Assembly (NCBI GenBank): GCA_041913245.1
Contig: JAYSFT010000003.1
Span: forward strand, 2,181 to 66,180
Reading direction: 5' to 3'
Source of the DNA: Rhodospirillaceae bacterium
GTDB lineage: Bacteria; Pseudomonadota; Alphaproteobacteria; Rhodospirillales; Rhodospirillaceae
DNA: 64,000 nucleotides
The first letter of the stretch is position 1. Each line of letters starts with the position of its first letter. Positions 28,659-45,704 of the stretch are shown piece after piece. A model generated the notes under the pieces. It was not told where the DNA came from, searched no databases, and saw nothing but the letters and a program-made list of their open reading frames with translations. The position numbers and the translations under genes are program-made.

Positions 28659-30492
28659 CGGCCGTCGCCGCGGGCCAGGCGCGTCCGGCGCGGATCGCAT
28701 CGAGCGTCTCGGTCAGGCGGGCCCGCCAGTTGGGATATTCGTCCGCGGTGCCGGGCACGTTGAGCCGCGTGGTCGCCCCGATCACGTCGCCAAGATTGAT
28801 GAGCGCGAGCTGTGACGCCGAAAGTCCCAGGAAAGCGTGCACCGCCGCGATGATCTCATCCACGGCGATGTCCGGCCGGTCATCGAGCAGGCCCTGATCC
28901 TTGAGGGCACCCAGGATAAGGGCGCGCTCTTCGCCGTCGGCGTCTCTCCAATAGCCCGCGAGGGTCGGAAGATCGTGCGTGGCGGCCTGGATCACACTCC
29001 GCGCGGGATAGGTCTCTGGGCGCTTGAAGAAGCCGTTAGGGTGGCGCTCGAAGTAGAACAGCCGCGTCGAGAGCATGTTGTCTTTCGCCATTCGTTCGCG
29101 AAATCCGTGCGGCACGGTGCCGAGGTCCTCGCCCACGATCAGGCACTTCGCGCGCAGGCTCTCGAGCGCGAGCAGCGCGAACAGATCGTCCACGGGATAG
29201 CTCACGTAAGCCCCGTCGGCCGCCGTGCCGCCCGGCGGGATCCAGAACAGCCGCTCCAGGGCCATCACATGATCGATGCGAAGGGCTCCGGCGCGGCGCA
29301 TGTTCGCCCGCCACGTCGTTGTCAGCGGCTCATAGGCCTGGGCGCGGAGCGCATGCGGATCGGGCGGCGGCAGTCCCCAATCCTGGCCGCGGGGTCCCAG
29401 CGGATCGGGCGGCGCGCCGAACCGCACTCCTTTTGGATACAGGTCCTGACGATGCCACGCCTCCGCGCCGTTCGGACTGACGCCGACGGCAAGATCGCGC
29501 ATCAGCACCGCGTCCGTTCCCGCCGCCGCGTCGGCGAGTTGCCTCTCGGCGAGCCATTGCAGGGTCGCGTGAACGCGCACTTCGCTCCCGTGATCGCGCA
29601 GGAACGCACGAACATCCCGTGACCGGGGATCGCGGAAGGCTTCCGGCCATCCGCTCCACGGACCGGCCAGGCGATCGCTCAAGGCCGAGAACAGACAGAA
29701 GTCCTCCAGCGCGTCTCCACCTTGCCGGATGAAGTCATCGACACCCGGATGGCCGGAGAGCCGCGCCGCCACCTTGCGCAGGGCCGCGTACTTCGTCCGC
29801 GCCACATCGCCATAGTCGATCAGCGCGGCGGTCGCGACTGTCGGAGGCGCGCTCAGGGCCACGTACAGGGGATTCAGGAATGTCCGGCTCGAGGGCCAGT
29901 ACGGACTTGCCTGCTCGGGCTCCTGCGGCGAGAGGGCATGGAACGGATTGACCGCCACGACCCGGCCGCCCTCGCCCGCCGTCATATGCAGAAGGTCCTT
30001 GAGGTCGGCAAAATCGCCGATCCCCCAATTGCGCGCGGACGCCACGGTATAAAGGTGACACGCGATGCCCCACGCCTTCTCGCCGCGCAGCAGCCAGTCC
30101 GGCGCGTAGGCCGACCCGGGCGCGACGATCAACCTGGTTTCTTTGTCTTCTACCCGCAGCGTGTGATAGCCGAGCGGCAGTTCACGCCGGAAGTGGATAC
30201 GTTCCTCGGCCCGGCCTTCGATGAATTCGCCGTTCTCAAGGGTGAGAGTCCAATCGCCCGAAAAAGGAAGATCGCGCACCGGCGTGCGCATCACGATCAC
30301 GGGCGGGAATTCGTCTCGGCGCAGCCGCGCGAGGCTGTCTTGGATTTCACCCTCGGTCGCGGCGTCATAGCCCATGGCCGCGAGCAGGGCCCGCTGGACC
30401 TCCGGCGTGGTGTGATGAAGCTGTCCCTGCACATCCCGATATTCGGCCTGGATGCCGGCTTCCCGCGCGAGCGTGGAAAGAAGGTCAACCAT
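28615..30492 (-). CDS. malQ: 4-alpha-glucanotransferase (amylomaltase, GH77) with N-terminal extension
   Basis: WGIACHLYTVASARNWGIGDFADL, QDWGLPPPDP, GALRIDHVMAL, IVGEDLGTVP and ATHDLPTLAGYW are GH77 catalytic strings. Confidence 0.9.
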   Translation of the reverse strand: MVDLLSTLAREAGIQAEYRDVQGQLHHTTPEVQRALLAAMGYDAATEGEIQDSLARLRRDEFPPVIVMRTPVRDLPFSGDWTLTLENGEFIEGRAEERIHFRRELPLGYHTLRVEDKETRLIVAPGSAYAPDWLLRGEKAWGIACHLYTVASARNWGIGDFADLKDLLHMTAGEGGRVVAVNPFHALSPQEPEQASPYWPSSRTFLNPLYVALSAPPTVATAALIDYGDVARTKYAALRKVAARLSGHPGVDDFIRQGGDALEDFCLFSALSDRLAGPWSGWPEAFRDPRSRDVRAFLRDHGSEVRVHATLQWLAERQLADAAAGTDAVLMRDLAVGVSPNGAEAWHRQDLYPKGVRFGAPPDPLGPRGQDWGLPPPDPHALRAQAYEPLTTTWRANMRRAGALRIDHVMALERLFWIPPGGTAADGAYVSYPVDDLFALLALESLRAKCLIVGEDLGTVPHGFRERMAKDNMLSTRLFYFERHPNGFFKRPETYPARSVIQAATHDLPTLAGYWRDADGEERALILGALKDQGLLDDRPDIAVDEIIAAVHAFLGLSASQLALINLGDVIGATTRLNVPGTADEYPNWRARLTETLDAIRAGRAWPAATAVMRRTRGRTTASAV

Positions 30493-32347
30493 CCACGGGC
30501 TCCAGCACGATCAACGATCCTTCAACCACAAGCACCTCACGCCATATGTCCTTCGGATATACGAACTCCACCGGGTCACCGGCGTTCATCCAGACCAGCA
30601 GCCGGTTCGCGATCTGGAAACCGAAGGCCTTGCAGTTCCGCCAATCGGCGTCGGTCATCGTTTGTCCGTCCGGGCGCAACCAGGCGATATCGCCCGCGCC
30701 GCTAAAGAAAGAGTCCCGGCGAAGCTCCGGGCGGGCTTTACGCAAGGCGATCGCGGCCCGGGCGAAGGCCACAAGATCGGCGTTCCTCTCCGCAAGACTC
30801 CAATCAAGCCATGCCATGTCGTTGTCCTGGCAATAGGCGTTGTTGTTTCCGCGCTGCGTCCGGCCGAACTCGTCTCCGGCCAGGAGCATCGGAACGCCTT
30901 GCGAAAGCATCAGCGAGGCGATGATGGCGCGCTTGCGCCGGTCCCGGTTCGCGCCATGATCGCGGCTGAGGTTGTGATTCGTACCGTCGCGGTTCTCCTC
31001 GCCGTTGGCCTCGTTGTGTTTCTCGTTGAAGCTCACGAGGTCCTCCAGCGTGAAGCCGTCGTGAGCGGTCACGAAATTGATGCCGTGCAGAGGCGCCGTC
31101 ACCACGCCGCTCGACCCCGCAAGCGCGGTGGCCATCGGGCCGGCCGCGCCGTCGTCACCCCGCCAGAACCCGCGGACCGCGTCACGGTACTGATCGTTCC
31201 ACTCCCGCCACGGCGCGGGAAGTTTTCCGAGGAAATGACCGGCCAGGTCCCACGGCTCGGCGATCAGTTTCAGCCGGCTCAATTCGCGATCGCGTCCAAT
31301 CAGGCTCAGCAGCGACGTCTCGGCGCAAAAACCGGCGCGAGTCCTTGCGAGAGTTCCGGCGAGATCGAAACGAAAGCCGTCGACGCCGGCCGTGCGGGCC
31401 CAATGACGCAGAGAATCGAGGACCAGGCGCTGCACCTGAGGGTGCGAAACATTGAGCACGTTTCCACAGCCGGAGGTGTTGACGTAGTCCTCCGGGAACG
31501 CATCGTCGAGCCAATAGTAGGAAGCGTTGTCGATGCCCCGGAACGACAGGGTGGGACCCAGGCGGTCGCCTTCCCCGGTGTGGTTGTAGACCACGTCGAG
31601 GATGACCTCGATCCCGACGGCATGATAGGCCGTCACCATGTCGCGCAGACCCCCGCCGTATCTTGGTTCGCCGGCGAAGAAGCTCACGGGGTTGTAGCCC
31701 CAGTAGTTCGAAAGGCCCGCGCGCGCCAGATGGATTTCATCGGTGAACGCATAGACCGGCAGGAGTTCGACCGCCGTCACGCCCAGCCGTTTGAGATGCG
31801 CAAGAATCTCCGGCGACGCCAGTCCCTGGAAAGTACCGCGATGATGCGCGGGGATGCTTGGATGACGCTGCGTCATGCCCTTCACATGCATCTCGTAGAT
31901 GATCGTGTCCCGCCAGGGTGTATTGGGCCGCACCGTTACCGGTTCTCGATCGCTCACAACGATGCCTTTCGGAACCACCGCCGCGTTGTCGGACATGTCG
32001 AGGTTCGCCGCGTGCCACGCGAAAGCGCCCGTGATCTTGCGGGCATAAGGATCGAGCAGAAGCTTATGGGGATTGAAGCGGTGGCCGCGCTCCGGTGCAT
32101 AGGGCCCATGGACGCGATAACCATAGACCTGCCCCGGCCGGCCGCCCGCGAGATAACCGTGCCAGATCTCGCCGGTCCGTCCCGGCAATGCCAAACGGCG
32201 CAGCTCGCGCGTTCCGGTCTGGTCGAACAGGCAGAGTTCGACCTTCTCGCCGTGCGCGGAGAACAGCGCGAAGTTGATCCCGCGTCCGTCCCAGGTCGCG
32301 CCCAGGGGTTCCGCTGCTCCCGCCTCCAGCCCGCCGAGAACCGTCAT
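30485..32347 (-). CDS. glgX: Glycogen debranching enzyme
   Basis: Starts MTVLGGLEAGAAEPLGATWDGRGINFALFSAHGEKVELCLFD. Contains YWGYNPVSFF, ILDVVYNHTGEG, GVDGFRFDLA, IAEPWD and FVTAHDGFTLEDLVS. The start is an internal ATG at 32347. Confidence 0.95.
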   Translation of the reverse strand: MTVLGGLEAGAAEPLGATWDGRGINFALFSAHGEKVELCLFDQTGTRELRRLALPGRTGEIWHGYLAGGRPGQVYGYRVHGPYAPERGHRFNPHKLLLDPYARKITGAFAWHAANLDMSDNAAVVPKGIVVSDREPVTVRPNTPWRDTIIYEMHVKGMTQRHPSIPAHHRGTFQGLASPEILAHLKRLGVTAVELLPVYAFTDEIHLARAGLSNYWGYNPVSFFAGEPRYGGGLRDMVTAYHAVGIEVILDVVYNHTGEGDRLGPTLSFRGIDNASYYWLDDAFPEDYVNTSGCGNVLNVSHPQVQRLVLDSLRHWARTAGVDGFRFDLAGTLARTRAGFCAETSLLSLIGRDRELSRLKLIAEPWDLAGHFLGKLPAPWREWNDQYRDAVRGFWRGDDGAAGPMATALAGSSGVVTAPLHGINFVTAHDGFTLEDLVSFNEKHNEANGEENRDGTNHNLSRDHGANRDRRKRAIIASLMLSQGVPMLLAGDEFGRTQRGNNNAYCQDNDMAWLDWSLAERNADLVAFARAAIALRKARPELRRDSFFSGAGDIAWLRPDGQTMTDADWRNCKAFGFQIANRLLVWMNAGDPVEFVYPKDIWREVLVVEGSLIVLEPVDG

Positions 32348-32349
32348 AT

Positions 32350-34278
32350 TCACACGGGCTTCAAGATCAAGGCCCCCAAGGGGGGCAGGGTCAGCGCAAG
32401 GACGCCGTCGGCGCCGGTGTGGACATCGCCGCCGTTTCCAACGTTTGTGCCTCCATAATAAGTGGAGTCCGAATTGAATATCTCGCGGTAGCGTCCCGGG
32501 CGCGGTGGGCGGATCCGGTAGCCTTCGCGCACGACCGGCGTGAAGTTGCACAGCACGATCAGGCGATCACCCCCCTCGGCGCCGCGGCGGCTGAAGGAGA
32601 TGACGCTGTTGCCGGTATCATGCGGATCGATCCACGCGAAGCCTTCCGCCTCGCAGTCCCGCGCGTGCAGGGCGGGCTCGTTCACATAGATACGGTTCAG
32701 ATCCCGCACCAGCGCCTGCACGCCTTTATGCTCCGCATACTGAAGAAGGCGCCAATCGAGGCTCCGCTCGTGGTTCCACTCGTTCCACTGGGCGATCTCG
32801 GCGCCCATGAACAGAAGCTTCTTGCCCGGATGGGTGAAGAAGAACGCGAGATAGCAGCGCAGGTTCGCAAACTTCTGCCGGGCGTCGCCCGGCATCTTGT
32901 TGAGCATCGAGCCTTTGCCGTACACCACCTCGTCGTGCGAGAGCGGAAGGACGAAATTCTCGTGGAACGCATAAGTCAGGCCGAACGTGAGTTCGTCGTG
33001 ATGGTGCTTGCGGTGCACGGGATCGCGCGCGATGTACCGCAGCGTGTCGTTCATCCACCCCATGTTCCATTTGAAACCGAAGCCGAGGCCGCCGAGGTAC
33101 GCCGGCTTTGAGACCATCGGCCAGGACGTGGATTCCTCGGCGACCGTGAAGGCGCCCGGCACGCGGTCGTGGATGACCTCGTTCAAACGGCGCAGGAAAT
33201 CCACCGCCTCCAGGTTCTCGCGCCCGCCATGACTGTTCGGGATCCACTCGCCGTCCTTCCTGGCGTAGTCGAGATAGAGGATGGAGGCCACGGCGTCGGC
33301 GCGCAGAGCGTCGATGTGATAGTCTTCGAGCCACGCCAGCGCATTGCAGACGAGCAGGTTCGCCACTTCCGTGCGCCCGTAGTTATAGATGAGCGTATTC
33401 CACTCGGCCTGGCGGCCCTGGCGCGGATCCGCATGTTCATAGAGGTTCGTCCCGTCGAAACGGCCCAGGCCGTGACCGTCCTCGGGGAAGTGACCGACCA
33501 CCCAATCGAGAATGACGCCGATGCCGGCCGCGTGGGCCCGGTCGATCAGGAACCGCAGATCGTCCGGCGCGCCATAGCGGCGCGAGGGCGCGAACAGTCC
33601 CAAAGGCTGATATCCCCACGATCCATAGAAAGGATGTTCCGCCAGCGGCATCACTTCGATGTGGGTGAAGCCCATGTCCTGCACATAAGGAATCAGCCGT
33701 TCGGCCAGCGCGCGGTAAGTCAGGAATTCGTTGGTCTCCGTCCGCATCCAGGAACCGAGATGCACCTCGTAGATGGACATCGGACGCCGGCGCATATCGC
33801 CGCCGCGATTTTCCATCCAGGCGGCGTCGGTCCACGGAAATGAGGACCGCGCCGTCACCACCGAGGCCGAGCCCGGCGGCATCTCCTGCATTTGCGCGAA
33901 GGGGTCCGACTTGAGCGGCAGGATCTCGCCGCGGTCGGATACGATGCGGAACTTGTAGAGGGCGCCGGGCCGGACACCCTCGACGAAGGCCTCCCAGATT
34001 CCGGACCCGGTGGGCTGAAGGACGGTGCGGTGCGCGTCCCAGTCATTGAAGTCGCCGGCCACGCCGACGGCCCGGGCGCCCGGCGCCCAGACGGAAAACC
34101 GCACCCCGGCCCGTCCCTGTTCCTGGCCCTCATGAGCGCCCAGCTTGCGGTGCAGGTCGAAGTGAAGGCCGCGCGTGAGCAAATGATGATCGAACGCAGA
34201 CAGGGCCGCCGTTTCCTGTGAAATTCCCGTCGCCATCCCCATCAGGCCCGCCTCGTGTGCCGCTATGCCGTGACACAT
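32350..34278 (-). CDS. glgB: 1,4-alpha-glucan branching enzyme (short N-terminus form)
   Basis: VRFSVWAPGARAVGVAGDFNDWD, SWGYQPLGLFAP, VILDWVVGHFP, IDALRADAVASILYLDY, TVAEESTSWP and FVLPLSHDEVVYGKGS are GH13 branching-enzyme motifs. Confidence 0.95.
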   Translation of the reverse strand: MCHGIAAHEAGLMGMATGISQETAALSAFDHHLLTRGLHFDLHRKLGAHEGQEQGRAGVRFSVWAPGARAVGVAGDFNDWDAHRTVLQPTGSGIWEAFVEGVRPGALYKFRIVSDRGEILPLKSDPFAQMQEMPPGSASVVTARSSFPWTDAAWMENRGGDMRRRPMSIYEVHLGSWMRTETNEFLTYRALAERLIPYVQDMGFTHIEVMPLAEHPFYGSWGYQPLGLFAPSRRYGAPDDLRFLIDRAHAAGIGVILDWVVGHFPEDGHGLGRFDGTNLYEHADPRQGRQAEWNTLIYNYGRTEVANLLVCNALAWLEDYHIDALRADAVASILYLDYARKDGEWIPNSHGGRENLEAVDFLRRLNEVIHDRVPGAFTVAEESTSWPMVSKPAYLGGLGFGFKWNMGWMNDTLRYIARDPVHRKHHHDELTFGLTYAFHENFVLPLSHDEVVYGKGSMLNKMPGDARQKFANLRCYLAFFFTHPGKKLLFMGAEIAQWNEWNHERSLDWRLLQYAEHKGVQALVRDLNRIYVNEPALHARDCEAEGFAWIDPHDTGNSVISFSRRGAEGGDRLIVLCNFTPVVREGYRIRPPRPGRYREIFNSDSTYYGGTNVGNGGDVHTGADGVLALTLPPLGALILKPV

Positions 34279-34956: not shown

Positions 34957-35514
34957 ATGGAGCATTTCACAGACACCGCGCACCTCGACCGCCGGCGTTT
35001 TTTCCTGACCGGCGCGGCCGCGACCGGGTGCCTGGCGGCGCGGCCGAGCTTCGCCGTCGCGGCGCCGGAACGCCCGCGCGCCTTGAGCTTCCAGAACCTG
35101 CATACGGGCGAACGCGTTTCGACGGACTATTGGGCCGATGGCCAGTATATCCCGGGCAGCCTGGACGAAATCTCGCGCGTTCTTCGCGACCACCGCAACG
35201 GCGCGAAACATGCGATCGATCCCAAGTTGTTGGACCTGCTTCACACGGTGCAGGCCAGACTTGAAACGTCGCAGCCGTTTCATGTGATCTCGGGCTACCG
35301 TTCGCCCGAAAGCAATATGAAGCTCGCCGCCGCCAGCTCGGGCGTCGCGACACACAGCATGCACATGGACGGAAAGGCGATCGATATCCGGATTCCGGGG
35401 ATCGCGCTCGTGAACTTGCACAAGGCCGCGAAGTCGCTGAAAGGCGGCGGCGTCGGCTATTATGCCGCGTCCAATTTCGTGCACATGGACGTCGGCCGGG
35501 TTCGCTACTGGTAA
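34957..35514 (+). CDS. DUF882/YcbK-type peptidase M15A family protein (Tat signal)
   Basis: Tat motif RRRFFLTGAAA. Contains FHVISGYRSPESN, SMHMDGKAIDIRIPG and GGVGYYAASNFVHMDVGRVRYW, the YcbK/MepK-like family pattern. Confidence 0.85.
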   Translation: MEHFTDTAHLDRRRFFLTGAAATGCLAARPSFAVAAPERPRALSFQNLHTGERVSTDYWADGQYIPGSLDEISRVLRDHRNGAKHAIDPKLLDLLHTVQARLETSQPFHVISGYRSPESNMKLAAASSGVATHSMHMDGKAIDIRIPGIALVNLHKAAKSLKGGGVGYYAASNFVHMDVGRVRYW

Positions 35515-35517
35515 TCC

Positions 35518-37911
35518 TTAGTCCGCCGGCGGCGCCACCGCGCAGGCCGTCGTCATGTCGCTGACCGCGCCCGTGCGCACGCTGACGAGCAGATACTGCA
35601 TCAAACCGTCGAATCCGTCCTTCAGGCGAACGTTATAGGCGCCGATCCCGCTGTGCGCGGGAAGCTCCAACCCCCTCTCAATATCCACGACCGAGAGCGC
35701 GATGTTGCCGCCCGCCGGCACCTCGCTTGTCGTAAAATCGCCAAGCGCGCGGCCGTCGAGCGCGTCAAACACGGCAAGCTCCGCGACAGCGGCCGCGGTG
35801 CCGGCATTGTAGAGCACCAGAAGGGCAACGTTCTCTTCCTCGATCGCCGAGGCCCGCACGGCGATGGCGTCCCGCGCGCTTGCGGTGGTTCCAGCCCCGC
35901 AGGCCGACAGATTGGTCGATGCGCCGCGCCCGTTATGGCGCAGGACGTGCTGAACGAAGCCCGGGAAATCGCTTTGAACCATTAGGCGCAAAAACGGCGA
36001 GGCCTCATCCACGGCCGGCAACATATCGGCGACGGAAAACGCGCGCGAACTGTTCGGAGCGATGCTCACGCTGTCCCAACGCCCCATACGCGAACCGCTC
36101 GCGGCGTCGAAGATATCCACATGAATGGGAGCCGTCCGCGGGCTGGGATTATAGACCCGCAAGATCGATTCAAATTCGGCCGACGCCGGAAAAATCATGC
36201 CCATTTCGCTTGAGGACTGCCCGGCGCCCGCCGCGCCGTCCAAGGCACAGACCGTCGTCATATCCGTCATCAGTCCGGCGCCCTGGTTCGCGATCACTTG
36301 CTGCAATGCGCCGGAAAAATCGTTCTCGATTTTCAGGACCCAATGACCTGTGTCCCACGCGGGCGTCACCCGCGCCGCGCTTTCGAGCTGTCGAACCGGC
36401 AGCAGGAGTTCGCCGTCCACGGGCACCTCGGCCGTCGTGAACGCGCCGACGCGGCGGCCGTCGCGCGCATCGTAAATGCCGATTTGCGCTGCGGCCGCCG
36501 TCGCGCCCTGGTTCTGGACGACGATCGACGCCGGGTAGCCGTCATTCAAATTCGAGGTATGGACGCCGGCAATCTGGCGGCCCGCGCGGGCCACACCCGC
36601 TGAACATGTGCTGAGGTTGGTGAGGACGCCGTAGGCGGGGCGGTGCAGGACGTGCTGGAATGTGCCGGTCATCGCGCTCGATATCACGGCCGAATAAGTC
36701 GCGGGCCGGTTGCCCACCTGCAATGCGGCTTCCACCTCGCGGATTGAATATTGAGGGGCCGCATTGGGGGCAATGGAGGGGCTTCCCCACGCGCCTAGAA
36801 ACCGGCCGTCGCGGCTGTCGTAGAGCGCAATACTGATAGTTCCGGAGTCGCTGCCGGTGTTGTGAATCCGGAAATACGAAATGGCGTTCGGATCGACGCC
36901 TGAAAAAATCGCGCCTTCGCGGAGCAAAGGCGTGAAACTCCGGTTCATCCGCGCCGGACCCTTGGTGATTTCGCCGACGTTCTCAAACGTATTGCCGGTC
37001 AAGGTCGCGGTGATCGCGGTGAAGTTATTGACCGCGATGGAGTTCGACGCACGGTTGACGAACGAACTGCCGGTGATGGTCAGGCTGCTGACGTCGTGCA
37101 GGGACTTTTCCGCGCCAAAGGCGATCATGCTGTTGTTGCTGGTGCGCGACCCCTGGGTCACGCGCACACCCGTCAGAACGGCCTCGCCGCCGTTGGGCAA
37201 ATCGACGGCGTAACTCGGGGTCCCGGTGACGCCGTCATCGAGCACGGTATTCGTGATCGTCGTCTTCAGGGCGCGGCTTTTGATATCGTGCCCGACCTTC
37301 GTGCCCGCAAAGACACTGTCGCTGACAACCAGATGCGCGATGGCGTTGATATAGATGCCGTGCGTATAGCCGTCTCCCGCGCCGTTTCCTGAAAAGATCG
37401 ACCGGCGGATCGTCACGAAGGCGTCTTTATTGCCGTTGGCGAGGATGCCGTTCTGATTGTTGTTGAAGGCGCAGGTGTCGACCGTGAGACGCCCCGCCTG
37501 GTGGCGAATCCCGGCGCCGTTCCTACCGTCGGAATCCGTGACGTTGGCGCCTTCGAAGGTAATCTTGCGGACGGTGAGGTCGGCATTCACCACCAGAAGG
37601 CCTTTTCGGTTGGAGATCGGCTTGGTGGCGCGCAGGACCGCGCCGCGCCCCGCCCCTTCGATGGTCAGAGGCTTATCGATGGTGGCGACGTCATCGAGAT
37701 ACACGCCGGCATCGAGCACGATGCGATCGTTCGGCTTCGCGGCGGCGATGCCCGCCTGCAAAGTCTTTAAAGCCCGTCCAGGCCCCACATTGATTTCGGC
37801 CGCGCGCGCCGGAAGAGCCGCGTACGCAAGAAGTGCGATCACCGAAACGGGAAGCCGTCGCGCCCGCGAACAATCGCGGCTTGCTTCCTTCGACAACAAC
37901 TTGCGTAACAT
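35518..37911 (-). CDS. Secreted protein: N-terminal right-handed beta-helix domain plus two copies of an uncharacterised A-B two-domain module
   Basis: Start at ATG 37911 (MLRKLL...ALLAYAALPARAAEINV). Beta-helix-like repeats follow (GAGIRHQAGRLTVDTCAFNNNQNGIL; THGIYINAIAHLVVSDSVFAG...). Four C-terminal domains of about 100 aa follow. They end ...FQHVL..LTNLSTC, ...MTDMTTVCAL, ...FVQHVL..STNLSACG and ...VSDMTTACAV. Confidence 0.75.
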   Translation of the reverse strand: MLRKLLSKEASRDCSRARRLPVSVIALLAYAALPARAAEINVGPGRALKTLQAGIAAAKPNDRIVLDAGVYLDDVATIDKPLTIEGAGRGAVLRATKPISNRKGLLVVNADLTVRKITFEGANVTDSDGRNGAGIRHQAGRLTVDTCAFNNNQNGILANGNKDAFVTIRRSIFSGNGAGDGYTHGIYINAIAHLVVSDSVFAGTKVGHDIKSRALKTTITNTVLDDGVTGTPSYAVDLPNGGEAVLTGVRVTQGSRTSNNSMIAFGAEKSLHDVSSLTITGSSFVNRASNSIAVNNFTAITATLTGNTFENVGEITKGPARMNRSFTPLLREGAIFSGVDPNAISYFRIHNTGSDSGTISIALYDSRDGRFLGAWGSPSIAPNAAPQYSIREVEAALQVGNRPATYSAVISSAMTGTFQHVLHRPAYGVLTNLSTCSAGVARAGRQIAGVHTSNLNDGYPASIVVQNQGATAAAAQIGIYDARDGRRVGAFTTAEVPVDGELLLPVRQLESAARVTPAWDTGHWVLKIENDFSGALQQVIANQGAGLMTDMTTVCALDGAAGAGQSSSEMGMIFPASAEFESILRVYNPSPRTAPIHVDIFDAASGSRMGRWDSVSIAPNSSRAFSVADMLPAVDEASPFLRLMVQSDFPGFVQHVLRHNGRGASTNLSACGAGTTASARDAIAVRASAIEEENVALLVLYNAGTAAAVAELAVFDALDGRALGDFTTSEVPAGGNIALSVVDIERGLELPAHSGIGAYNVRLKDGFDGLMQYLLVSVRTGAVSDMTTACAVAPPAD

Positions 37912-37938
37912 AACTTTACACCCATCCCTTGCAGCTTT

Positions 37939-37965
37939 GTGGCGACATTCGGGTAACGTCGCCAC
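37939..37965. promoter_or_regulatory. Inverted repeat GTGGCGAC-N11-GTCGCCAC upstream of the beta-helix protein gene
   Basis: Perfect 8-bp arms at 37939-37946 and 37958-37965, lying 28-54 nt upstream of ATG 37911. The arms contain the TGTCGCCAC string also seen in repeat cluster 2 at 21464-21472. Confidence 0.4.
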
Positions 37966-38050
37966 CGAGGGAAGGTTGCGTCGATAAACAGCCGGCACGA
38001 AGCGATTGCGCGGCCGTGTCGATGCGGCGGAAAAACGCGCGTTAAAATTT

Positions 38051-39268
38051 TTACACGACCGGCCTGATGAGACCCCTGGGCCGGTAGCCGAGCGACGGGA
38101 AGACCGCCTTAAGATTGTCCTCGCCGCGGCGTTGGACGAGAATCTCCTGCAGGACCTGCCGCACGTCCGTGGTGACGCGCAGGTCCCCTTCCCTGAGATC
38201 GGCGGGCCGCAAGCCCGGCCATTCGCCGTAAATGCGCCCACCGTTCACGCCGCCGCCGAGCACGAACATGAACGAGCCGGCGCCATGATCGCTGCCGCCC
38301 GCCGTGTTCTCGTCGAGACGCCGCCCGAACTCCGTCATGGTGACGACCGTCAGGCGGTGCTGAACGGCGGCGAGATCGGTCCAGAAGGCGGCAAGACTTT
38401 GTGAAAGGTGCGCTGCGGCCGGCGGGAAATAGCTGTTCATATTGTAGTGGTGGTCCCAGCCGCCGAAGTCGACGGTCGCCACCTCGAGGCCGACATTCAT
38501 TTTGACGATATCCGCGACCGAACGTAAGGACGCCGCGAAACCGCCGGCCGGGTACGTCACGCCGCCGGCCGGCAACCGCCCGAGACTTCCTTGCACGCTG
38601 CGGACCATGTCCACGGTGGCGCGCGCCGAGGCGGCTTGCGGAGTATCACCCGCATTCAATATCTCGATCACATTGAGATTGTAGTCGCCGCCCGGAACAT
38701 TGAAGTCGCGCACATCGGGGATGGCGGCGACCCCGCGCCTCCCCTGGAGCGGCGCATGAATGTCCGGCGCGCTGGAAACGGCGCCCAGATCCGCGAGCGT
38801 CAGATCGCGCGCCGCCAGATGGCGGGCAAGCCAGCCGCCGAGAATGGGCGCGTCGCCCTCGGTGACGCCCCGCTCCATCATGTTCTGGCTTTCAAAGTGA
38901 CTGCGCGTGTCGGTCGGCAGGCCCGCCGCGTGAACCACCGCAAGGCGTCCGGCGTCGAACAAGCCCTTCAACTCCGGCGCGCTCGGGTGCAGGTAGAACG
39001 GCACATCGTCCAACGGACCGAGCGGAAGGCCGGCATTCTGGCCCTGCGCGGTCACCTTGATCGTCGGACGGCGGGCTTGATAGTCGGGGTCCTGGGCAGG
39101 CGCGACCATGGTCAATCCGTCGCAGCCGAAACGCAGGAAGACCACGACGAGGATATCGCGCGATGTCGATGTCTCTGCCGAGAATGCCGCGCGGACACCG
39201 GGCGCAAAGGCCGACAGGGCGGCGCCGGTGGAAGCCGATTTCAACAGTGTGCGGCGGGAGAGGGTCAT
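38051..39268 (-). CDS. DUF1501 domain protein (Tat-exported, sulfatase-like fold family)
   Basis: Tat signal MTLSRRTLLKSASTGAALSAF. Contains TRSHFESQNMMERG, FGGWDHH and MTEFGRRLDENTAGGSDHGAGSFMFVLGGGVNGGRIYGEWPGL, the DUF1501 hallmarks. Confidence 0.9.
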   Translation of the reverse strand: MTLSRRTLLKSASTGAALSAFAPGVRAAFSAETSTSRDILVVVFLRFGCDGLTMVAPAQDPDYQARRPTIKVTAQGQNAGLPLGPLDDVPFYLHPSAPELKGLFDAGRLAVVHAAGLPTDTRSHFESQNMMERGVTEGDAPILGGWLARHLAARDLTLADLGAVSSAPDIHAPLQGRRGVAAIPDVRDFNVPGGDYNLNVIEILNAGDTPQAASARATVDMVRSVQGSLGRLPAGGVTYPAGGFAASLRSVADIVKMNVGLEVATVDFGGWDHHYNMNSYFPPAAAHLSQSLAAFWTDLAAVQHRLTVVTMTEFGRRLDENTAGGSDHGAGSFMFVLGGGVNGGRIYGEWPGLRPADLREGDLRVTTDVRQVLQEILVQRRGEDNLKAVFPSLGYRPRGLIRPVV

Positions 39269-39274
39269 ATGGGC

Positions 39275-40885
39275 CTACCGCATCGCGAATTCAGGAGACG
39301 TGGCGATGAGAAGCGCCAGACGCCGCAGCGCATTCTCGATATTCGTGATCCCGCCCGAGGCATAGGCGGCCATGACGCCCGGCGAGGTCATGACATCCTT
39401 GAGCAATGCATCCATGGATGCCTGCGGCAGGGTGTAGCCCACCATCCTGCCGACCCAGTATTCCACAATGTGAATGGCCGAGTCGGCGACCGCCGCCGGT
39501 GTCTGCTCCCAGAAGCTGGTGCGGAAAGAAGGATGCACCAGCACGTCGAACATCACGTTCCAGAAGTGGTGGTTGCCGGCGCTGGAGAGCCAATGCGCGT
39601 CCGTATCGGGCCGTCCGTCCGGCGTCGGCCAGGCATAGAGTCCGTCACCCAAGCCAAAGAGCGCCATGTAGGCCTCATCGTAGGCATTGATGATGGTGTC
39701 TGTGGTACGGAACAGCGCCATCAGGCGCTCATAGGGCCGGCGCAGCTTCGCGGGCGGATTGCCCATCTCCGGGCTGAGGAGGATGACCTCCATCACGCGC
39801 CCGATCTGGTCGGGCGCGTCGATATTCGCCGTCCAAGCGGCCATGGCGCGGTCGAGCACATTCTGCGGCGGAGAGTCGCCGAAAATGCGCCGGCAAATCT
39901 TGCCAACGACAAAACGCGCTGTCGCGGGATGCGCCGCCAGAAGGTCCAAAATCCGCTGCCCTTGCGCCATGGGGCCCTGAAAGGCCGTGCCGGACAGATC
40001 GTTGCCCATGAACACGCCCACATCGTTGTTATGCTGCACGGGATTGAAGACAAACCGTCCGGTGAACGGCAGCGGGCCGCGCTCGCCCTCCTGGCCGTGT
40101 TCCAACGTCCAGCCCGAGAACGCGCGTGACGCCGCGACGATGTCCTGGTCGGTGAAATGCGAGTTCACCCTGAAGGGACCCGCCGAAACCTGCGGCAACG
40201 CGGCATCGGCGGAAACACCGCGGTAGGCCTCCGCGCCCAGCGTGTGAAGCTCAAGCAGCTCGCGCACGTAATTTTCCGTCGGCCGGCCCGCCTTGCTTTC
40301 GGCGTTATTCAAATAGCGCAGCATCGACGCGCTGCTCGCCACCGTCTCGAGGAAGGCGCGGAAGTTGCCGAACACGTTGGGCCGGATCACTTCGTTCTCA
40401 TAGACGATCAGCGCGGCGGCGCCGTAGACATCCTCGTTGCGGCCCACGTTGAAATGATTGGCCCAGAAATCGGCCATGAATTCGCGCAGCTGAAACCTGG
40501 AATGAACATTGCGGATCCAGGCCGCCGCGTTCAGTTCCTGTTGAATACGGTGCCGCTCGTTCGGAGCGATGGAGATTTCGGTCTTGCCGACCATGTCCCA
40601 GATCGCCGGAATGTCCGTGTACAGATAACGCAGAGGACGGCGCTCATCGACCGCGGGCCATCCCGGGCTTTTACCGGCGGGCAATTGGACCGCGTAGGCA
40701 ATGCGCATCGTACGCGCCCTAAGGTGTTCCTCGATACGCGGCTCATCACCCGGCGGCGGTTGGAGCTGCGTTGCCACCCAGGCGGGCCATCCCGTCTGCT
40801 GAACGGCGGCCACCTCGGCATCGCGGGCGCCGAAGGTCACCCGGCTGAGCGCTCTGTGTTCGAAGCTTCCTGTGGACGGCAGCAT
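39275..40885 (-). CDS. DUF1800 domain protein
   Basis: FWANHFNV, LLELHTLGAEAYRG and the usual pairing with DUF1501. Start taken at ATG 40885 (AGGAAG Shine-Dalgarno, 8 nt after the porin stop). The track start 40921 would overlap the porin gene. Confidence 0.85.
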   Translation of the reverse strand: MLPSTGSFEHRALSRVTFGARDAEVAAVQQTGWPAWVATQLQPPPGDEPRIEEHLRARTMRIAYAVQLPAGKSPGWPAVDERRPLRYLYTDIPAIWDMVGKTEISIAPNERHRIQQELNAAAWIRNVHSRFQLREFMADFWANHFNVGRNEDVYGAAALIVYENEVIRPNVFGNFRAFLETVASSASMLRYLNNAESKAGRPTENYVRELLELHTLGAEAYRGVSADAALPQVSAGPFRVNSHFTDQDIVAASRAFSGWTLEHGQEGERGPLPFTGRFVFNPVQHNNDVGVFMGNDLSGTAFQGPMAQGQRILDLLAAHPATARFVVGKICRRIFGDSPPQNVLDRAMAAWTANIDAPDQIGRVMEVILLSPEMGNPPAKLRRPYERLMALFRTTDTIINAYDEAYMALFGLGDGLYAWPTPDGRPDTDAHWLSSAGNHHFWNVMFDVLVHPSFRTSFWEQTPAAVADSAIHIVEYWVGRMVGYTLPQASMDALLKDVMTSPGVMAAYASGGITNIENALRRLALLIATSPEFAMR

Positions 40886-40893
40886 GATGCTTC

Positions 40894-43149
40894 CTAGAAG
40901 TCGTAACGGGCCGAGAGCCAAACGAGATGGGCGGAATAGCGCGGCGACGTGATGCCCGAGCCGAGAATCTGCGGCACCGGCGCGGCGCCATAGCCGTATT
41001 GCCAGTCATTCGTGGTGTGATGCTGGAACATATAACCGACGCGCAACGTCGTATCGGCGCGCACTTTGTAGTCCCCTGTAAGGTTCACATTGTGCGTCAC
41101 ATCGCGCACGTCCGGGAGGGGAGCCGTGTTCATCACCAGCGCGAAATTCGATCCGATCGCGTTGAACCGGCTGGCGCCGTCGGAAACATAGTAGCCGGCG
41201 CCGACTTTCAGAAGCTGAGGGACTGCATCCCAATCGGCCTTGACGCCGACCGTGTGAATGACATCGCGGTTCGCCGTACTCCAGTTCTGGGCCGGATTGG
41301 AGAGATTGACCGTCCCCATCAGGTACCCGGTCAGATCAAACTTGATGCGCTCGAAGCTGTAGAAGGCCGTCGCCGTGAGCCGCTTGGCGAGCACGTAGGA
41401 CAAGTTGGCGTCGAGTTGCACGGATTCGGAGCGTTGCAGGCCCAGCGGCGAGTTCTTGTAGTCGTCCTCGGCATAGAGGCCGGCCGCATCGAGCATGAGC
41501 GCCGGGCCCAGTTCAACGGTGGCGCCGCCCTTCGCTTCATTGCGTTTGCGATCCGCCATATTGAATTTGCGCAGCAGCGGATGTTCGATGGATTGATTGA
41601 ACGGCGAGGCGTTCAAATAGCTTTCGGTGTGACTGAGATTCCACGGCAGCGTATCGTCGTAAATCGATCCGCTTCGGCTGGCGTAGGCGTAGGCGACCCA
41701 GGCGGAGCCGGCGGTGAATGTCGTCAGGAGCTTGGCTCTGAAGCTGTGCTCCGAAGTATCGGAAACCTGTTGATATTTCCGCGCGCGGAAGTCGCCGACA
41801 TAAGAAATCGTCAGGCGGGTGCGCGCGGCGAGGCGGACGCCGACATCGGTTTTCGCCTGCTGGAACGTAAAGCTGTGCGGAAGTTTGTAGCGGATATAGC
41901 GGCTGGCGCCCGGAACCAGCGGGCGGACCTGATCCTGGGCCTCGTTGGCGACGTAGCTATAAAGATCGATCGGCGAACGGTTGTCGCGGTCGTCGAGGGT
42001 ATAACCGGCCGAGACATCGACAGCCGAGGTGGGGCGCGCGGTGACGCCTAGAACGACATGCGCTTTGTACACCTTGCCGTCGAGCGAGGTGCGCGGCAGC
42101 GGTTCCGGCACGCTCAATTGCGTCATCGCGGTGTAGGGCAGGAATTCCTCGTCCTGCTTTTGCACCATGTAGGAGACGCGCGCCGTGACGCGCACCTTGG
42201 GCGAAAGGGCGTAGGCGCCGGAAATCAACGCCTGATGGGCGATGGATGACGGCGGCAAGCCATATTCACCGAAGGCATTGGGGTAACCCGACAGCGCGCC
42301 GCCGGGCCACAGGCCGCCGAGCGCGCGGTTATAGGGGTTCGGCACGCGCACAGACGCGATCCCGTTTGTGAAGACCGAAAGGTTGTAGCTGGCGGACCAT
42401 TGAAGGCGATCGCCCGTGAAAGCGAGCGACGCGCTGGCCTGGTCCGTCTGATAATCCACGGGCTGCGCGAAAAACACGCCGACGGCGGTGTTCATCTCGT
42501 GGCCGAAGGCGAGATTCTGCCCGCGCAACCCTTCCCGGTCACGGTGGCTTGCGCTCAAGCGAATTTCATAGCCTTCGCGCGGATTGACGACGATATCGCC
42601 GCCCGCGGCACGCCAATCGACCTTGAGGTCGAGAGGATGAAGGTTTTGCGCGAGGGCCGAGAAGCCGGCCGACGTATTGCTGCCCACCCAGGTGGAGGGC
42701 AGCGTCAGAAGCGTGCCGCCGCTTCCAATGAACGGCGTACGCGCGGAATTCGTGTAGGAGCGGGTAAAGCCGTCATAAAAGGCGCGGGCGCGCCAGCGTC
42801 CTTGCGTTCCGTAGCTCACCCGCGCCGAAATGGTATCGAAGCCGAAGACGTCGACCGCGGCATTCCAGTTCCGTGCGCCGCCCGAATCCCACGCGTCACC
42901 GCCGTCGAGCGCGCCGCGAAAGACCGCGAACGGTCCGCGTCCGATCGGGCCGCCATACCGTCCGACGTGGAAGGAGTTGATGTCCTGATACCCGACGCCG
43001 GCCTCGAAATAGCTCGTGGTGAGCGGCGGCGGCATGGTCACCACCGGGGTCGCGCCGAGTTCGAACGACCCGTCCTGCGCCCGCGCAGGGGTGACGGGCA
43101 GGACGAGACCGAGGAGCACGAGCCAGCGCTGGGGAACGGGAAATGCCAT
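40894..43149 (-). CDS. MtrB/PioB-family outer-membrane beta-barrel (porin of a porin-cytochrome conduit)
   Basis: Signal peptide MAFPVPQRWLVLLGLVLPVTPARAQDG. About 750 aa with alternating beta-strand patterns and a terminal ...LSARYDF. SYFEAGVGYQDINSFHVGRYGG and TPFIGSGGTLLTLPSTWV..NLHPLDLKV resemble MtrB/PioB N-terminal motifs as I recall them. It lies immediately downstream (8 nt) of a decahaem cytochrome gene. Confidence 0.7.
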   Translation of the reverse strand: MAFPVPQRWLVLLGLVLPVTPARAQDGSFELGATPVVTMPPPLTTSYFEAGVGYQDINSFHVGRYGGPIGRGPFAVFRGALDGGDAWDSGGARNWNAAVDVFGFDTISARVSYGTQGRWRARAFYDGFTRSYTNSARTPFIGSGGTLLTLPSTWVGSNTSAGFSALAQNLHPLDLKVDWRAAGGDIVVNPREGYEIRLSASHRDREGLRGQNLAFGHEMNTAVGVFFAQPVDYQTDQASASLAFTGDRLQWSASYNLSVFTNGIASVRVPNPYNRALGGLWPGGALSGYPNAFGEYGLPPSSIAHQALISGAYALSPKVRVTARVSYMVQKQDEEFLPYTAMTQLSVPEPLPRTSLDGKVYKAHVVLGVTARPTSAVDVSAGYTLDDRDNRSPIDLYSYVANEAQDQVRPLVPGASRYIRYKLPHSFTFQQAKTDVGVRLAARTRLTISYVGDFRARKYQQVSDTSEHSFRAKLLTTFTAGSAWVAYAYASRSGSIYDDTLPWNLSHTESYLNASPFNQSIEHPLLRKFNMADRKRNEAKGGATVELGPALMLDAAGLYAEDDYKNSPLGLQRSESVQLDANLSYVLAKRLTATAFYSFERIKFDLTGYLMGTVNLSNPAQNWSTANRDVIHTVGVKADWDAVPQLLKVGAGYYVSDGASRFNAIGSNFALVMNTAPLPDVRDVTHNVNLTGDYKVRADTTLRVGYMFQHHTTNDWQYGYGAAPVPQILGSGITSPRYSAHLVWLSARYDF

Positions 43150-43157
43150 GCCGCCGC

Positions 43158-44075
43158 CTACCGGGAAAGCCTGACGCCAGACGGATGGTTCGAGCCGTGC
43201 ACCGCGCTGTGGCAGTTCAGGCAAGCTCTGAGCACCATCTGCTTGGATGGCGACACGCCGCCGGGAAGGCTCGCGCCGCTGAAAGGCTGACTATTATGCG
43301 TGGAACTGTCGTGACAGTTCTGGCACAGGAACGGCGGGCGCTGCTTCAACAGGGACGCCTGGACCGTGCCGTGCGGCGTGTGGCAGATCGTGCACTGCTC
43401 CTGGACCGGCGCGTGTTCCCATAGGAACGGTCCGCGCTTTTCATCGTGGCAGGTCAGGCAGGTGTCGTTGACGGTCGCGCCGCGCAACATGGTTTGTGTC
43501 GGCGATCCATGCGGATTGTGGCAATCCGCGCAGGACATTCGCCCTTCGAGCACGGGATGATGCGAAGGCTTCAAGGCCGCCGCGCGTTTGTCCGCATGAC
43601 AGGAAAAGCAGATGGGCGCCTGCGTGGTTTTCACCAGCACGGGATCCTGCACGGTATGGGACTTGTGACAGTTCGTGCAGGCGATGTCCGAGGACTGATG
43701 CAAACTGCCCTGCCAGTGCACGGCCGTGCTGCCCTGATGGCATCCGGCGCAGGTTTCGTTGCGCTTTTCCACCGGGGACGCGCGCGGACCTGAAAACACC
43801 ACCGACGGCGGTGGGCGGACTTGTTCCCCGCGCAGGCGCGCAACGTGTTCGCGGCTATCGCCGTGACAAGACTGGCATCCCTGATCGGCGACACCGGTTC
43901 TCGCGTCCGCCTTCACCATGTGCGCGGCATGAAGGACCGAGGTGACCGCCAGCTGGTCGTGGCAATTCATGCATCCGCCAGGATCGGACGCGTTGCCGAG
44001 CGAGCGCTCTTCCTGCGAAGCCGCCGGCGCGGCGAACAAGACCACCGCCAGAAAGAGGGCGCGCGCCACGATCAT
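43158..44075 (-). CDS. Periplasmic decahaem c-type cytochrome, MtrA/MtoA/PioA/DmsE family
   Basis: 305 aa with a signal peptide. Exactly ten CXXCH motifs: CMNCH, CQSCH, CAGCH, CTNCH, CFSCH, CADCH, CLTCH, CTICH, CQNCH, CLNCH. Confidence 0.9.
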   Translation of the reverse strand: MIVARALFLAVVLFAAPAASQEERSLGNASDPGGCMNCHDQLAVTSVLHAAHMVKADARTGVADQGCQSCHGDSREHVARLRGEQVRPPPSVVFSGPRASPVEKRNETCAGCHQGSTAVHWQGSLHQSSDIACTNCHKSHTVQDPVLVKTTQAPICFSCHADKRAAALKPSHHPVLEGRMSCADCHNPHGSPTQTMLRGATVNDTCLTCHDEKRGPFLWEHAPVQEQCTICHTPHGTVQASLLKQRPPFLCQNCHDSSTHNSQPFSGASLPGGVSPSKQMVLRACLNCHSAVHGSNHPSGVRLSR

Positions 44076-44076
44076 G

Positions 44077-45009
44077 TCAGTTCCGCGCGGCGACGAAGTC
44101 CGCCTTCCCTGTATCGATGCTTAAGGTCTTTTCAAGCGAGACGTAATGGAAGCGCTGCGCCGCGTGGCCGGCATGCAGCGAAATGCCGATGGTATAATTT
44201 TTACCCGCCGCGAAGTCCTTATGCCCCTCGCCGGCCACCATCTTGCGGCTGAAGATGACGGTCCACTTCGTACCGCTCTCGGCGGCCTCGACGGCGACGG
44301 CCGGCGCGGCGTTCTCGGCGCGCTTTTCAAGGATCGTACCGTCCACGGCGACCGCGGGCTGCCCCGGATTGAGGCGCGCCTGCCAGTATTCGAGATAACC
44401 GCCTTCGGCGCGGATTCTATCGAGTTCCGAGGCCGGCTTGACCTCGGCCCCGCCCTTGCGGCTCAAGGAGACGCGCGAGCGCGACAGGTATTTCTGGGTC
44501 TCGCCGTTTCCGCCGCTCGGCATGCGCGTCAGATTGTCATGACAGGTGGCCCAGCAGCCCGCGCGCGCGGCCTCTGGCACTTTTCCATCATCGATCATCA
44601 CGGCGAGCTTGGTGGCGAAATCCTTGTCCATTCCCGCGTCCGGTTGCCGGCCGGGATCGACCTCGACACGGACATAGATATTCTGACCGTCGTGTGCCGC
44701 CTTCACGTTCGCCATGACGAAGCCCGGCTTCCCCGCGATCGGCGTGGGCTCGGTGCTTTTATCGTTCACAAGCAGCTTGCCCGAGGCCTTCTCCTCGCCC
44801 TCGTGACAGCCCGCGCAGTTCTTGCCTTCGCGGAATTTGCCGGCGCCGCTATGGTCGGATTGCGTCAGCAGCATCTCCCACGACATCTGCGCGGGATAAA
44901 AGAGAACGACGTCTTTGCCGCCCACTTTATTCCAATCGAGCGCCTGCGCTTCGAAAGAAAGAAAGAGCGCGGCGGAAGCGCATGCGAATTTCGAGATTCC
45001 GGATGACAT
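44077..45009 (-). CDS. Periplasmic c-type cytochrome with EB_dh/DOMON-like haem-binding domain
   Basis: Signal peptide MSSGISKFACASAALFLSFEAQA. One CXXCH (CAGCH) plus a CX3CH-like string (CWATCH). The overall pattern (..KLAVMIDDG.., ..YLEYWQARLNPG.., ..WTVIFSRKM.., ..IGISLHAGH...) recalls the cytochrome c-552/ethylbenzene dehydrogenase-like haem domain. Its stop is 1 nt from the decahaem gene start. Confidence 0.6.
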   Translation of the reverse strand: MSSGISKFACASAALFLSFEAQALDWNKVGGKDVVLFYPAQMSWEMLLTQSDHSGAGKFREGKNCAGCHEGEEKASGKLLVNDKSTEPTPIAGKPGFVMANVKAAHDGQNIYVRVEVDPGRQPDAGMDKDFATKLAVMIDDGKVPEAARAGCWATCHDNLTRMPSGGNGETQKYLSRSRVSLSRKGGAEVKPASELDRIRAEGGYLEYWQARLNPGQPAVAVDGTILEKRAENAAPAVAVEAAESGTKWTVIFSRKMVAGEGHKDFAAGKNYTIGISLHAGHAAQRFHYVSLEKTLSIDTGKADFVAARN

Positions 45010-45053
45010 CGGTTTCGTCCTCAGCCTATCGTTTGCGCGGGAGCGAGGGGCGC

Positions 45054-45635
45054 ATGAACACGGCAAACACTTCGGTCACAAGATACGGCGCCGCCGCCGT
45101 GGCGCTGCACTGGATCATCGCCGCCTGTTTGTTGGTTTCGGTGGTCCTGGGTTTGATCCTCGGCAACGTCGAGGAAAGCGAGTCCACGGAGCAGGCGCTC
45201 GCGATTCACAAGTCCTTCGGTATCGCGATCTTTGCCCTGATGCTTGCGCGCCTGGCCTGGCGCATGACACACCCGGCGCCGCCCCTGCCCGCGACCATGC
45301 CGGCGTACCAACGCGCGCTCGCCGCGCTCACACACGGACTGCTTTACGTCACGTTGCTGGCGATGCCCGTCGTCGGGTATGTCGCGGTCGCCGCGCGCGG
45401 CCGCGAAACCCGATTCTTCGGGTTGTTCGACGTGCCGCAGATGACACCGCTGAGCCGGATGCTGTCGCAGAACGCGACCACCGTTCACGTCTACGGTCAG
45501 TATGTGATTTACGCGCTGCTTATCGCGCATATCGGAGCCGCTCTCTACCATCATATTGTACTTAAGGATGACGTGCTGACGCGGATGCTGCCGCGCCGGT
45601 CCCCGGAGAAGAACGCGCCCCAGGCGACGGTCTGA
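45054..45635 (+). CDS. Cytochrome b561 family (CybB-like) inner-membrane dihaem protein
   Basis: RYGAAAVALHWIIAACLL, AIHKSFGIAIFALMLARLAWR, ALTHGLLYVTLLAMPVVGY and HVYGQYVIYALLIAHIGAALYHH show four TM helices with conserved His. Start at the internal ATG 45054. Confidence 0.85.
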   Translation: MNTANTSVTRYGAAAVALHWIIAACLLVSVVLGLILGNVEESESTEQALAIHKSFGIAIFALMLARLAWRMTHPAPPLPATMPAYQRALAALTHGLLYVTLLAMPVVGYVAVAARGRETRFFGLFDVPQMTPLSRMLSQNATTVHVYGQYVIYALLIAHIGAALYHHIVLKDDVLTRMLPRRSPEKNAPQATV

Positions 45636-45704
45636 CCGTCCCCGGGGCTTGCGCCCTGACGCCGCATCCGTGATCGCGCGGACGGGCGCCATGATGCTCG
45701 GGCC

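Follow-up and report, generated by a model that had tools for sequence, protein, structure and literature searches.

A secreted β-helix protein ending in two pairs of a β-sandwich domain that is probably related to ASRT

The window analysed here, a 64,000-nucleotide stretch of contig JAYSFT010000003.1 from a Rhodospirillaceae bacterium (GenBank assembly GCA_041913245.1, positions 2,181 to 66,180 of the forward strand), carries a gene for a large secreted protein beside the genes of an MtrAB-type porin-cytochrome conduit. The question it raises is whether the repeated domain in this protein belongs to electron transfer or has a more general function. On the minus strand, two genes for small secreted proteins are followed by those for an EB_dh protein, an MtrA-like cytochrome, an MtrB/PioB porin, a DUF1800 protein and a DUF1501 protein and, 139 nt further downstream on the same strand, by the gene for the 797-aa protein in question. 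A preliminary description, made from the DNA letters alone, had proposed that this protein is secreted and consists of a β-helix followed by four units of two alternating types (A-B-A-B). This was confirmed by translation, pairwise BLASTP and an AlphaFold2 (AF2) model, as were the position of the gene and the absence of the CXXCH motif from the A-B proteins. On balance, we favour a secreted modular enzyme with a polysaccharide-active β-helix, the two disulfide-locked ASRT-like pairs of which bind or anchor, probably on glycan.

In pairwise BLASTP, units A1 and A2 share 31% identity (E 8e-18) and units B1 and B2 35% (E 4e-23), and A and B units are 21–28% identical to each other (E 1e-7 to 1e-12). 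Thus, A and B derive from a single domain that has diverged, and their alternating order is real. Though the architecture proposed earlier stands, the lengths do not: the β-helix covers ~290 aa (residues 38-325) and the four units together ~460 aa, rather than ~400 aa each, and a unit is ~115 aa and not ~100 aa long. Two of the motif strings given before were each off by one residue, as A1 reads DGRFLGAW and seven residues lie between QHVL and (L/S)TNLS. Every unit closes with a single Cys, as had been stated, and these are Cys436, Cys555, Cys671 and Cys790. The same pair of units also builds both small proteins at 45705-47770, which align to residues 339-571 of the 797-aa protein with E ~1e-12. 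A single-unit hidden Markov model (HMM), built from an alignment that excluded the window protein and its closest orthologue, detected exactly eight units and no others in the six-frame translation of the window, namely four in the 797-aa protein and two in each small protein. Scans of the three proteins recognised no Pfam or NCBIfam family in the units, a PDB sequence search with the pair profile gave no match, and isolated units and relatives matched FixG_C, PLipase_C_C, CARDB and Big (Ig-like) of Pfam only at chance level.

The units are paired almost without exception. Two or four are present in 288 of the 311 proteins in which they were counted (two in 190 and four in 98), and the 23 proteins with one or three units are mostly fragments from short contigs. 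The pair HMM gave one or two matches in every relative retrieved. In the 386 complete A-B pairs, taken from 296 proteins, both Cys residues occur in 384, one ending A and the other ending B; neither occurs in two pairs, and there is no pair with a single Cys. Because the two residues are strictly kept or lost together in exported proteins, they likely form a disulfide between A and B, which would join Cys436 to Cys555 and Cys671 to Cys790. The suggestion that the pair is disulfide-linked is thereby made probable.

The AF2 model of the 315-aa small protein (mean predicted local distance difference test score, pLDDT, 82; predicted template modelling score, pTM, 0.76) shows two eight-stranded sandwiches, and by DSSP each unit consists of eight strands and one short helix. 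In a Foldseek search of the PDB, with template modelling (TM) scores normalised to the target, the best single-domain match was ASRT (2ii7; TM 0.68–0.74, root mean square deviation (rmsd) 2.9–3.3, probability 1.0), followed by Thermotoga TM1070 (1nc7; TM 0.59–0.65, probability 1.0). Most matches of the two-domain model were to multi-domain Ig arrays such as GH2 enzymes, complement C3 and Fabs (TM <0.2) and were discounted as generic sandwiches, and the search with the A-B pair model returned no cupredoxin. Hence, among the folds considered in the preliminary description, Ig-like arrays appeared at low TM and cupredoxins not at all. Its statement that the domain could not be placed holds as far as a named family is concerned, but does not extend to remote similarity, since both fold and profile resemble those of ASRT/TM1070. 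These two proteins belong to the ASRAH superfamily (Pfam PF07100). According to De Souza, Iyer and Aravind (2009; PMC2739507), its members are predicted to bind sugars or small molecules, and the extracellular ones invariably come in twos or fours. The unit counts of the A-B family match this published rule.

For profile comparison, the ASRT sequence was confirmed against the PDB and 80 metagenomic ASRT homologues were collected. An hhalign comparison of 54 units with 73 ASRT-family sequences scored 30.4 over 86 columns (P 8e-5, probability 60%), as compared with 10.8 ± 2.1 (maximum 17.4) for 200 column-shuffled templates and 12.4 for the reversed template, the significance being overstated relative to other β-sandwiches because column shuffling removes strand periodicity. 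With a two-sequence ASRT template, P was 0.002 and the probability 13%. The register was identical for A alone, B alone and A and B together. It places the invariant Asn, which is conserved in 97–98% of A and of B units and ends model strand 79-86, on Asn38 of ASRT (equivalent to Asn32 of TM1070), Gln-His on the VVQH of ASRT, and the near-invariant Arg of A units opposite the ligand-contacting Cys29 of TM1070. Taken together, the model and the profiles make it fairly probable that the A-B units are homologous to ASRT/TM1070.

DUF5719 (PF18986) was the only Pfam model matched repeatedly by A-B pairs (7 of 27, best E 1.5e-4). Unit A2 (E 0.015) and ASRT (E 0.069) match it weakly in the same part of the domain. 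All of these matches lie far under the gathering score of 26.2 bits and are not seen with the full-length proteins. On the DUF5719 profile, ASRT falls at positions 175-224 and an A unit at 63-119, i.e. ~110 positions apart, which suggests that DUF5719 holds a tandem ASRT-like pair. It may be the actinobacterial lipoprotein family described for ASRAH in the 2009 paper; a literature search on DUF5719 returned nothing relevant.

The columns conserved in at least 90% of A units are Ser-x-x-Arg-x-x-Asn, Gln, Gln-His, Asn and Cys, and those of B units are His, Asn, Gly, Gly, Asn and Cys. Gln-His is a feature of type A, the corresponding residues being LQQV in B1 and MQYL in B2. Each A unit has one conserved His, and the His and Cys of A units are both more than 95% conserved. 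The Gln-His and Cys had been put forward as a possible set of metal ligands. This proposal is not supported, as the Cys is best explained structurally and the His is conserved in type A only. Because of its conserved polar residues and the alignment of its Arg with Cys29 of TM1070, unit A would instead form a ligand pocket, made up of Ser-x-x-Arg-x-x-Asn on strand 2 together with Gln and Gln-His, and the more degenerate unit B would be its structural partner.

The whole 797-aa protein, for which 16 full-length relatives with 48–82% identity were found, was modelled by AF2 with a mean pLDDT of 86. The strand ladder of the N-terminal domain extends over residues 39-323. The top Foldseek match of this domain is the PL31 alginate lyase PsAly (6kfn; E 4.6e-6, target-normalised TM 0.73, rmsd 3.5, 19% identity), and further matches include capsule depolymerases of Klebsiella and other phages, pectin methylesterases, pectate lyase Pel9A and mannuronan epimerase AlgE6. 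Relatives of the protein match Pfam Beta_helix. In PsAly, Tyr184 and Lys221 are catalytic and Glu181, Glu216 and Asp219 form a cation site (PMC6796002). Across 36 orthologues and paralogues of the 797-aa protein, K103, R136, H184, Y187, H208, K211, R213, D226 and D237 are invariant (motif GHDIKSRA). Given a fold of the lyase and depolymerase type and these clustered invariant residues, the β-helix probably cuts or modifies polysaccharide. The substrate is most likely acidic, and would be either the capsule or matrix of the producer or a polysaccharide from the environment.

A search of 1.84 billion cluster representatives with the pair profile yielded 1374 clusters (50% identity) at E ≤1e-3 and 422 at E ≤1e-30. 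Where the source names an organism, it is always an uncultured Rhodospirillaceae, Proteobacteria or Marinimicrobia metagenome-assembled genome (MAG), and several isolate names of MAGs suggest an origin in activated sludge, lakes or the sea. Among 107 proteins scanned for fusion partners, Flg_new_2 repeats were found in 35, trypsin-like domains in 12 and reprolysin-like domains in 10. Other partners are M23 peptidases, Vgb_lyase and SGL propellers, FG-GAP, PPC, Calx-beta, GH113, GH53, the β-lactamase fold and β-helices. The pair may be C-terminal, internal (18), N-terminal (28 proteins with two or four units) or on its own (94). Such varied partners and positions indicate an accessory binding or anchoring module and disfavour a cofactor domain specific to one pathway. 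A C-terminal sorting signal was considered and rejected, as the position of the pair varies. A two-unit paralogue of the β-helix protein (P0025) and a protein with reprolysin-like and ABAB parts (P0064) both lie in unrelated neighbourhoods.

Some members of the family occur in other settings. At positions 7914-16520 of locus L016, and likewise in L015, Flg_new_2 repeats are fused to a paralogous A-B protein, which adjoins a fusion of glucose/sorbosone dehydrogenase with cytochrome c; ~2 kb away, the opposite strand encodes an ABAB protein of 929 aa that matches M23 peptidase weakly. A-B genes are also carried by contigs labelled 'Candidatus Marinimicrobia' (L017, L018 and L022). The conduit cluster of L017 shares ~80% protein identity with those of Rhodospirillaceae MAGs, and the label suggests mis-binning or mislabelling rather than a second phylum.

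The 797-aa protein would thus be exported by Sec and probably act as an extracellular modular enzyme, reached by a presumed route beyond the inner membrane, in which the β-helix would cut or modify polysaccharide. Each A-B pair would pack as a disulfide-locked pseudo-dimer, so that two pairs give a four-domain assembly, and the pairs would represent a divergent extracytoplasmic branch of the ASRAH superfamily. By binding through unit A, a pair would hold the catalytic domain fused to it on a glycan, perhaps an anionic one, which may be the substrate or a surface polysaccharide of the producer. Several observations count against this interpretation. The Pfam model for ASRT, PF07100, gives no match to the units, and the sequence link to ASRT is sub-threshold, with hhalign probabilities of 13–60%. 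The conserved Trp in strand 1 of ASRAH is missing from the units, which have Phe/Tyr there ((A/G)(V/I)(F/Y)S or YAVVAP). Neither the β-helix nor the whole-protein profile matches any PDB sequence, even at E 10, and the residues of PsAly could not be mapped onto the β-helix. Furthermore, protease and propeller partners fit a general anchor equally well, and simple glycan binding leaves the conserved A-B-only proteins beside the conduit unexplained.

The conduit operon lies within 38051-45066 on the minus strand, and its MtrA-like protein is a decahaem cytochrome with 10 CXXCH motifs. One or two free-standing A-B proteins are encoded beside the conduit genes in the window and in L005, L007-L014, L017, L019 and L020. 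Of the 15 species-level loci that hold a small A-B gene, 10 have it directly upstream of the conduit genes, down to ~40% identity, and no gene for an MtrC-like outer cytochrome was seen in the conduit loci examined. The gene for the β-helix protein follows the DUF1501 gene in the window, L009, L010, L011, L013 and L014, but is absent from this position in five of 11 loci (L008, L017/L007, L005, L019 and L020). In L008, the conduit proteins of which are ~90% identical to those of the window, only 157 bp (19668-19825) separate the DUF1501 and M15 peptidase genes, as compared with 35515-38050 in the window; hence, the gene for the β-helix protein was lost in the L008 lineage or gained elsewhere, at a precise boundary. 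The conduit thus has its conserved partners in the small A-B proteins, and the gene for the β-helix protein is a facultative neighbour. The co-occurrence with the conduit that the preliminary description had wanted checked was found for the small proteins, and a specific link of the large one to the conduit was not supported. Literature searches on DUF1501/DUF1800/MtrB and on EB_dh/porin-cytochrome clusters returned nothing relevant.

This conservation raises the alternative of a redox or metal-binding function for the A-B pair, with Gln-His and Cys as ligands, at the extracellular end of an MtrAB-type electron path. It would account for the 10 of 15 loci with A-B-only genes immediately before EB_dh-MtrA-MtrB-DUF1800-DUF1501, for the lack of an MtrC-like outer cytochrome gene in the loci seen, and for the more than 95% conservation of His and Cys in A. 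However, the Cys residues behave as a disulfide pair, only one His is conserved per pair, CXXCH is lacking, and the B units of the 797-aa and small proteins do not have the His of Gln-His. Most family members are fusions with hydrolases in neighbourhoods without cytochromes, and the β-helix gene itself is missing from five of 11 conduit loci. We consider a redox or metal module improbable, and a role specific to electron transfer, as suggested before, does not agree with the finding that most A-B proteins occur in unrelated neighbourhoods as fusions with proteases, glycosidases and propellers. Just as improbable is a form of this idea in which a new MtrAB-type conduit has the A-B fold as its non-haem outer partner and the pocket of A binds an extracellular redox substrate or cofactor. 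Conduits of the DmsEF-DmsAB type can serve outer partners that are not cytochromes. Such a conduit would consist of the A-B-only proteins, EB_dh, the divergently encoded cytochrome b561, decahaem MtrA, MtrB, DUF1800 and DUF1501 under the control of an extracytoplasmic function (ECF) sigma factor and its anti-sigma factor, and the β-helix protein would dock on the same ligand or open the surface matrix around the conduit. If true, components based on an ASRT-like sandwich would form a new class in extracellular electron transfer.

The most serious competitor, though still unlikely, is a role of the pairs as anchors or scaffolds without glycan recognition, in which they would contact outer-membrane proteins, self-associate into four-domain assemblies or form a rigid stalk. 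The partners are indeed very varied, with many proteases and propellers, generic Ig-like arrays are among the fold matches, and the A-B-only genes adjoin a porin gene; in addition, TM1070 is tetrameric and the extracellular relatives occur in pairs or fours (PMC2739507). On the other hand, an invariant polar cluster confined to A (Ser, Arg, Asn, Gln and Gln-His) suggests a pocket for a small ligand rather than a broad protein interface, sugar binding has been proposed for the nearest structural relatives, and fusions to GH53, GH113 and β-helices suit targeting to glycans. Since proteases often carry the pair at their C-terminus and PPC domains occur alongside it, it might also be an aid in secretion or maturation, either a sorting signal or a PPC-like intramolecular chaperone, that is removed after export. 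This is very improbable given that pairs are also N-terminal (28), internal (18) or alone (94), that free-standing A-B genes are conserved, and that no secretion-system genes were seen nearby. Finally, an orthologue (P0003) is named 'nitrous oxide reductase family maturation protein NosD' in GenBank, and NCBIfam NosD_copper_fam (TIGR04247) matches residues 51-199 of the 797-aa protein weakly (E 2e-11), as would befit a NosD-type periplasmic copper or maturation factor. That match reaches 42.8 bits as compared with a curated cut-off of 300 and covers 143 of 377 profile positions, and Pfam NosD does not match the protein. Moreover, neither the flanking genes scanned with Pfam nor the Pfam lists for related loci contained a nos-family match, and the fold agrees best with lyases and depolymerases. 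An assignment as NosD is thus hardly credible. In all, the 797-aa protein is most simply an ordinary modular secreted enzyme. The family of its units, unmodelled in the Pfam and NCBIfam libraries that were scanned, probably represents a new ASRAH branch.

The coordinates of the gene, its parts and the two small A-B genes are collected in Table 1, the unit coordinates having been checked by translation. The open reading frame (ORF) of the 797-aa protein starts with ATG, with a purine-rich stretch 5' of it. Judging from the sequence, the signal peptide would be cleaved between LPARA and AEINV. In this segment, the AF2 model has a pLDDT below 50 at residues 1-20 and 32-35 and a helix at residues 21-30. 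A sequence scan found no promoter-like sites, and terminator-like sites only at chance level.

Table 1. Positions in the window of the gene for the 797-aa protein, its parts and the small A-B genes.
Feature	Coordinates	Strand	Details
Whole gene: signal peptide, β-helix and four β-sandwich units A-B-A-B	35518..37911	-	797 codons + stop
Sec-type signal peptide, residues 1-37	37801..37911	-	read from sequence; ends VIALLAYAALPARA before AEINV
Right-handed parallel β-helix, residues 38-325	36937..37800	-	AF2 strand ladder, Foldseek
Unit A1, residues 330-437 (YFRIHN … FQHVL … TNLSTC); Cys436 at 36604-36606	36601..36924	-	
Unit B1, residues 440-556 (VHTS … IVVQN … IYDARDG … MTDMTTVC); Cys555 at 36247-36249	36244..36594	-	
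Unit A2, residues 562-671 (ILRVYN … VQHVL … TNLSAC); Cys671 at 35899-35901	35899..36228	-	
Unit B2, residues 674-791 (LVLYN … VFDALDG … VSDMTTAC); Cys790 at 35542-35544	35539..35892	-	
Small secreted one-pair A-B protein, 323 aa	45705..46676	-	Gly-rich C-terminal tail ending in Tyr
Small secreted one-pair A-B protein, 315 aa	46823..47770	-	52% identical to 323-aa neighbour

In many of the small A-B proteins, the C-terminus forms a Gly-rich tail at alignment columns 380-400 that reads GGDGGGLPGGGISY or GGPGLNGY and has Tyr as its last residue; the 315-aa paralogue lacks this tail. Anchoring of the small proteins as lipoproteins was rejected, since the Cys in the signal peptide of the 323-aa protein is not conserved. 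Diverging from the A-B genes, a gene for an ECF sigma factor (48025-48549, plus strand) is overlapped by one for a probable anti-sigma factor of 247 aa (48546-49289, plus strand) that has no Pfam match. L005, L006 and L007 keep these two genes at the same place, adjacent to genes for DUF1329 and DUF1302. The EB_dh protein (44077-45066, minus strand) resembles the gamma subunit of ethylbenzene dehydrogenase, a haem b-type protein, and also has one CXXCH. Its TTG start is probably set too far upstream, judging from a signal-like segment that begins near residue 19. Divergent from this gene is an ORF for a cytochrome b561 (44982-45635, plus strand; Ni_hydr_CYTB, E 5e-29), which is present in most related loci and absent from L005 and L006. 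A 223-aa ORF on the minus strand (45021-45692) is a shadow of the b561 gene and not a gene. Beyond the gene for the β-helix protein lie a DUF882/M15 peptidase gene (34957-35514, plus strand) and then glycogen genes (24512-34278), which encode a starch synthase-like GlgA, glycogen phosphorylase, 4-alpha-glucanotransferase, a GlgX-like debranching enzyme and a GlgB-like branching enzyme.

The A-B units make up a sizeable domain family (1374 clusters) without a model in the searched copies of Pfam and NCBIfam, and its rule appears to be a disulfide-locked A-B pair in one or two doses. With a name for this family, secreted proteases, glycosidases and propeller proteins could be annotated by the hundred and mis-annotations as 'NosD' corrected. 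If the link to ASRT holds, a little-studied superfamily of predicted sugar binders extends to the secreted enzymes of Gram-negative bacteria. The free-standing A-B proteins beside an MtrAB-type cluster without an outer cytochrome are a lead for work on extracellular electron transfer.

The conduit of the window is similar to the MtrCAB, PioAB, MtoAB and DmsEF conduits in that the neighbouring operon includes genes for a decahaem MtrA-like protein and an MtrB/PioB porin. It differs from those of the MtrCAB type in further conserved genes, namely those for the A-B-only proteins, EB_dh, cytochrome b561, DUF1800 and DUF1501. The β-helix domain shares its right-handed fold with PL31 PsAly and other β-helix lyases and depolymerases, and, like lyase clefts, it has clustered Lys, Tyr, His, Arg and Asp residues that are conserved. 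In contrast, sequence similarity to PsAly is absent, and PsAly has no C-terminal modules. As small β-sandwiches that occur in one or two doses on many unrelated catalytic domains, the A-B pairs are comparable to carbohydrate-binding modules (CBM) and to PPC, PKD and SLH-type modules; unlike these, they are always heterotypic, with a putative disulfide between the domains, and there is no sequence kinship. Like ASRAH domains, the A-B units are eight-stranded sandwiches of ~110–120 aa with an Asn ending strand 2, they have the Gln-His of ASRT on a late strand, and they come in pairs or fours as do the extracellular ASRAH versions. However, the SHEshChhN signature of ASRAH is replaced by S-x-x-R-x-x-N in the A-B family, and the units are of two fixed, diverged types that end in a Cys predicted to pair across A and B. 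Their hosts are secreted enzymes of Gram-negative, Alphaproteobacteria-like MAGs, whereas the known hosts of ASRAH domains are cytoplasmic solo proteins, amidase fusions and actinobacterial lipoproteins.

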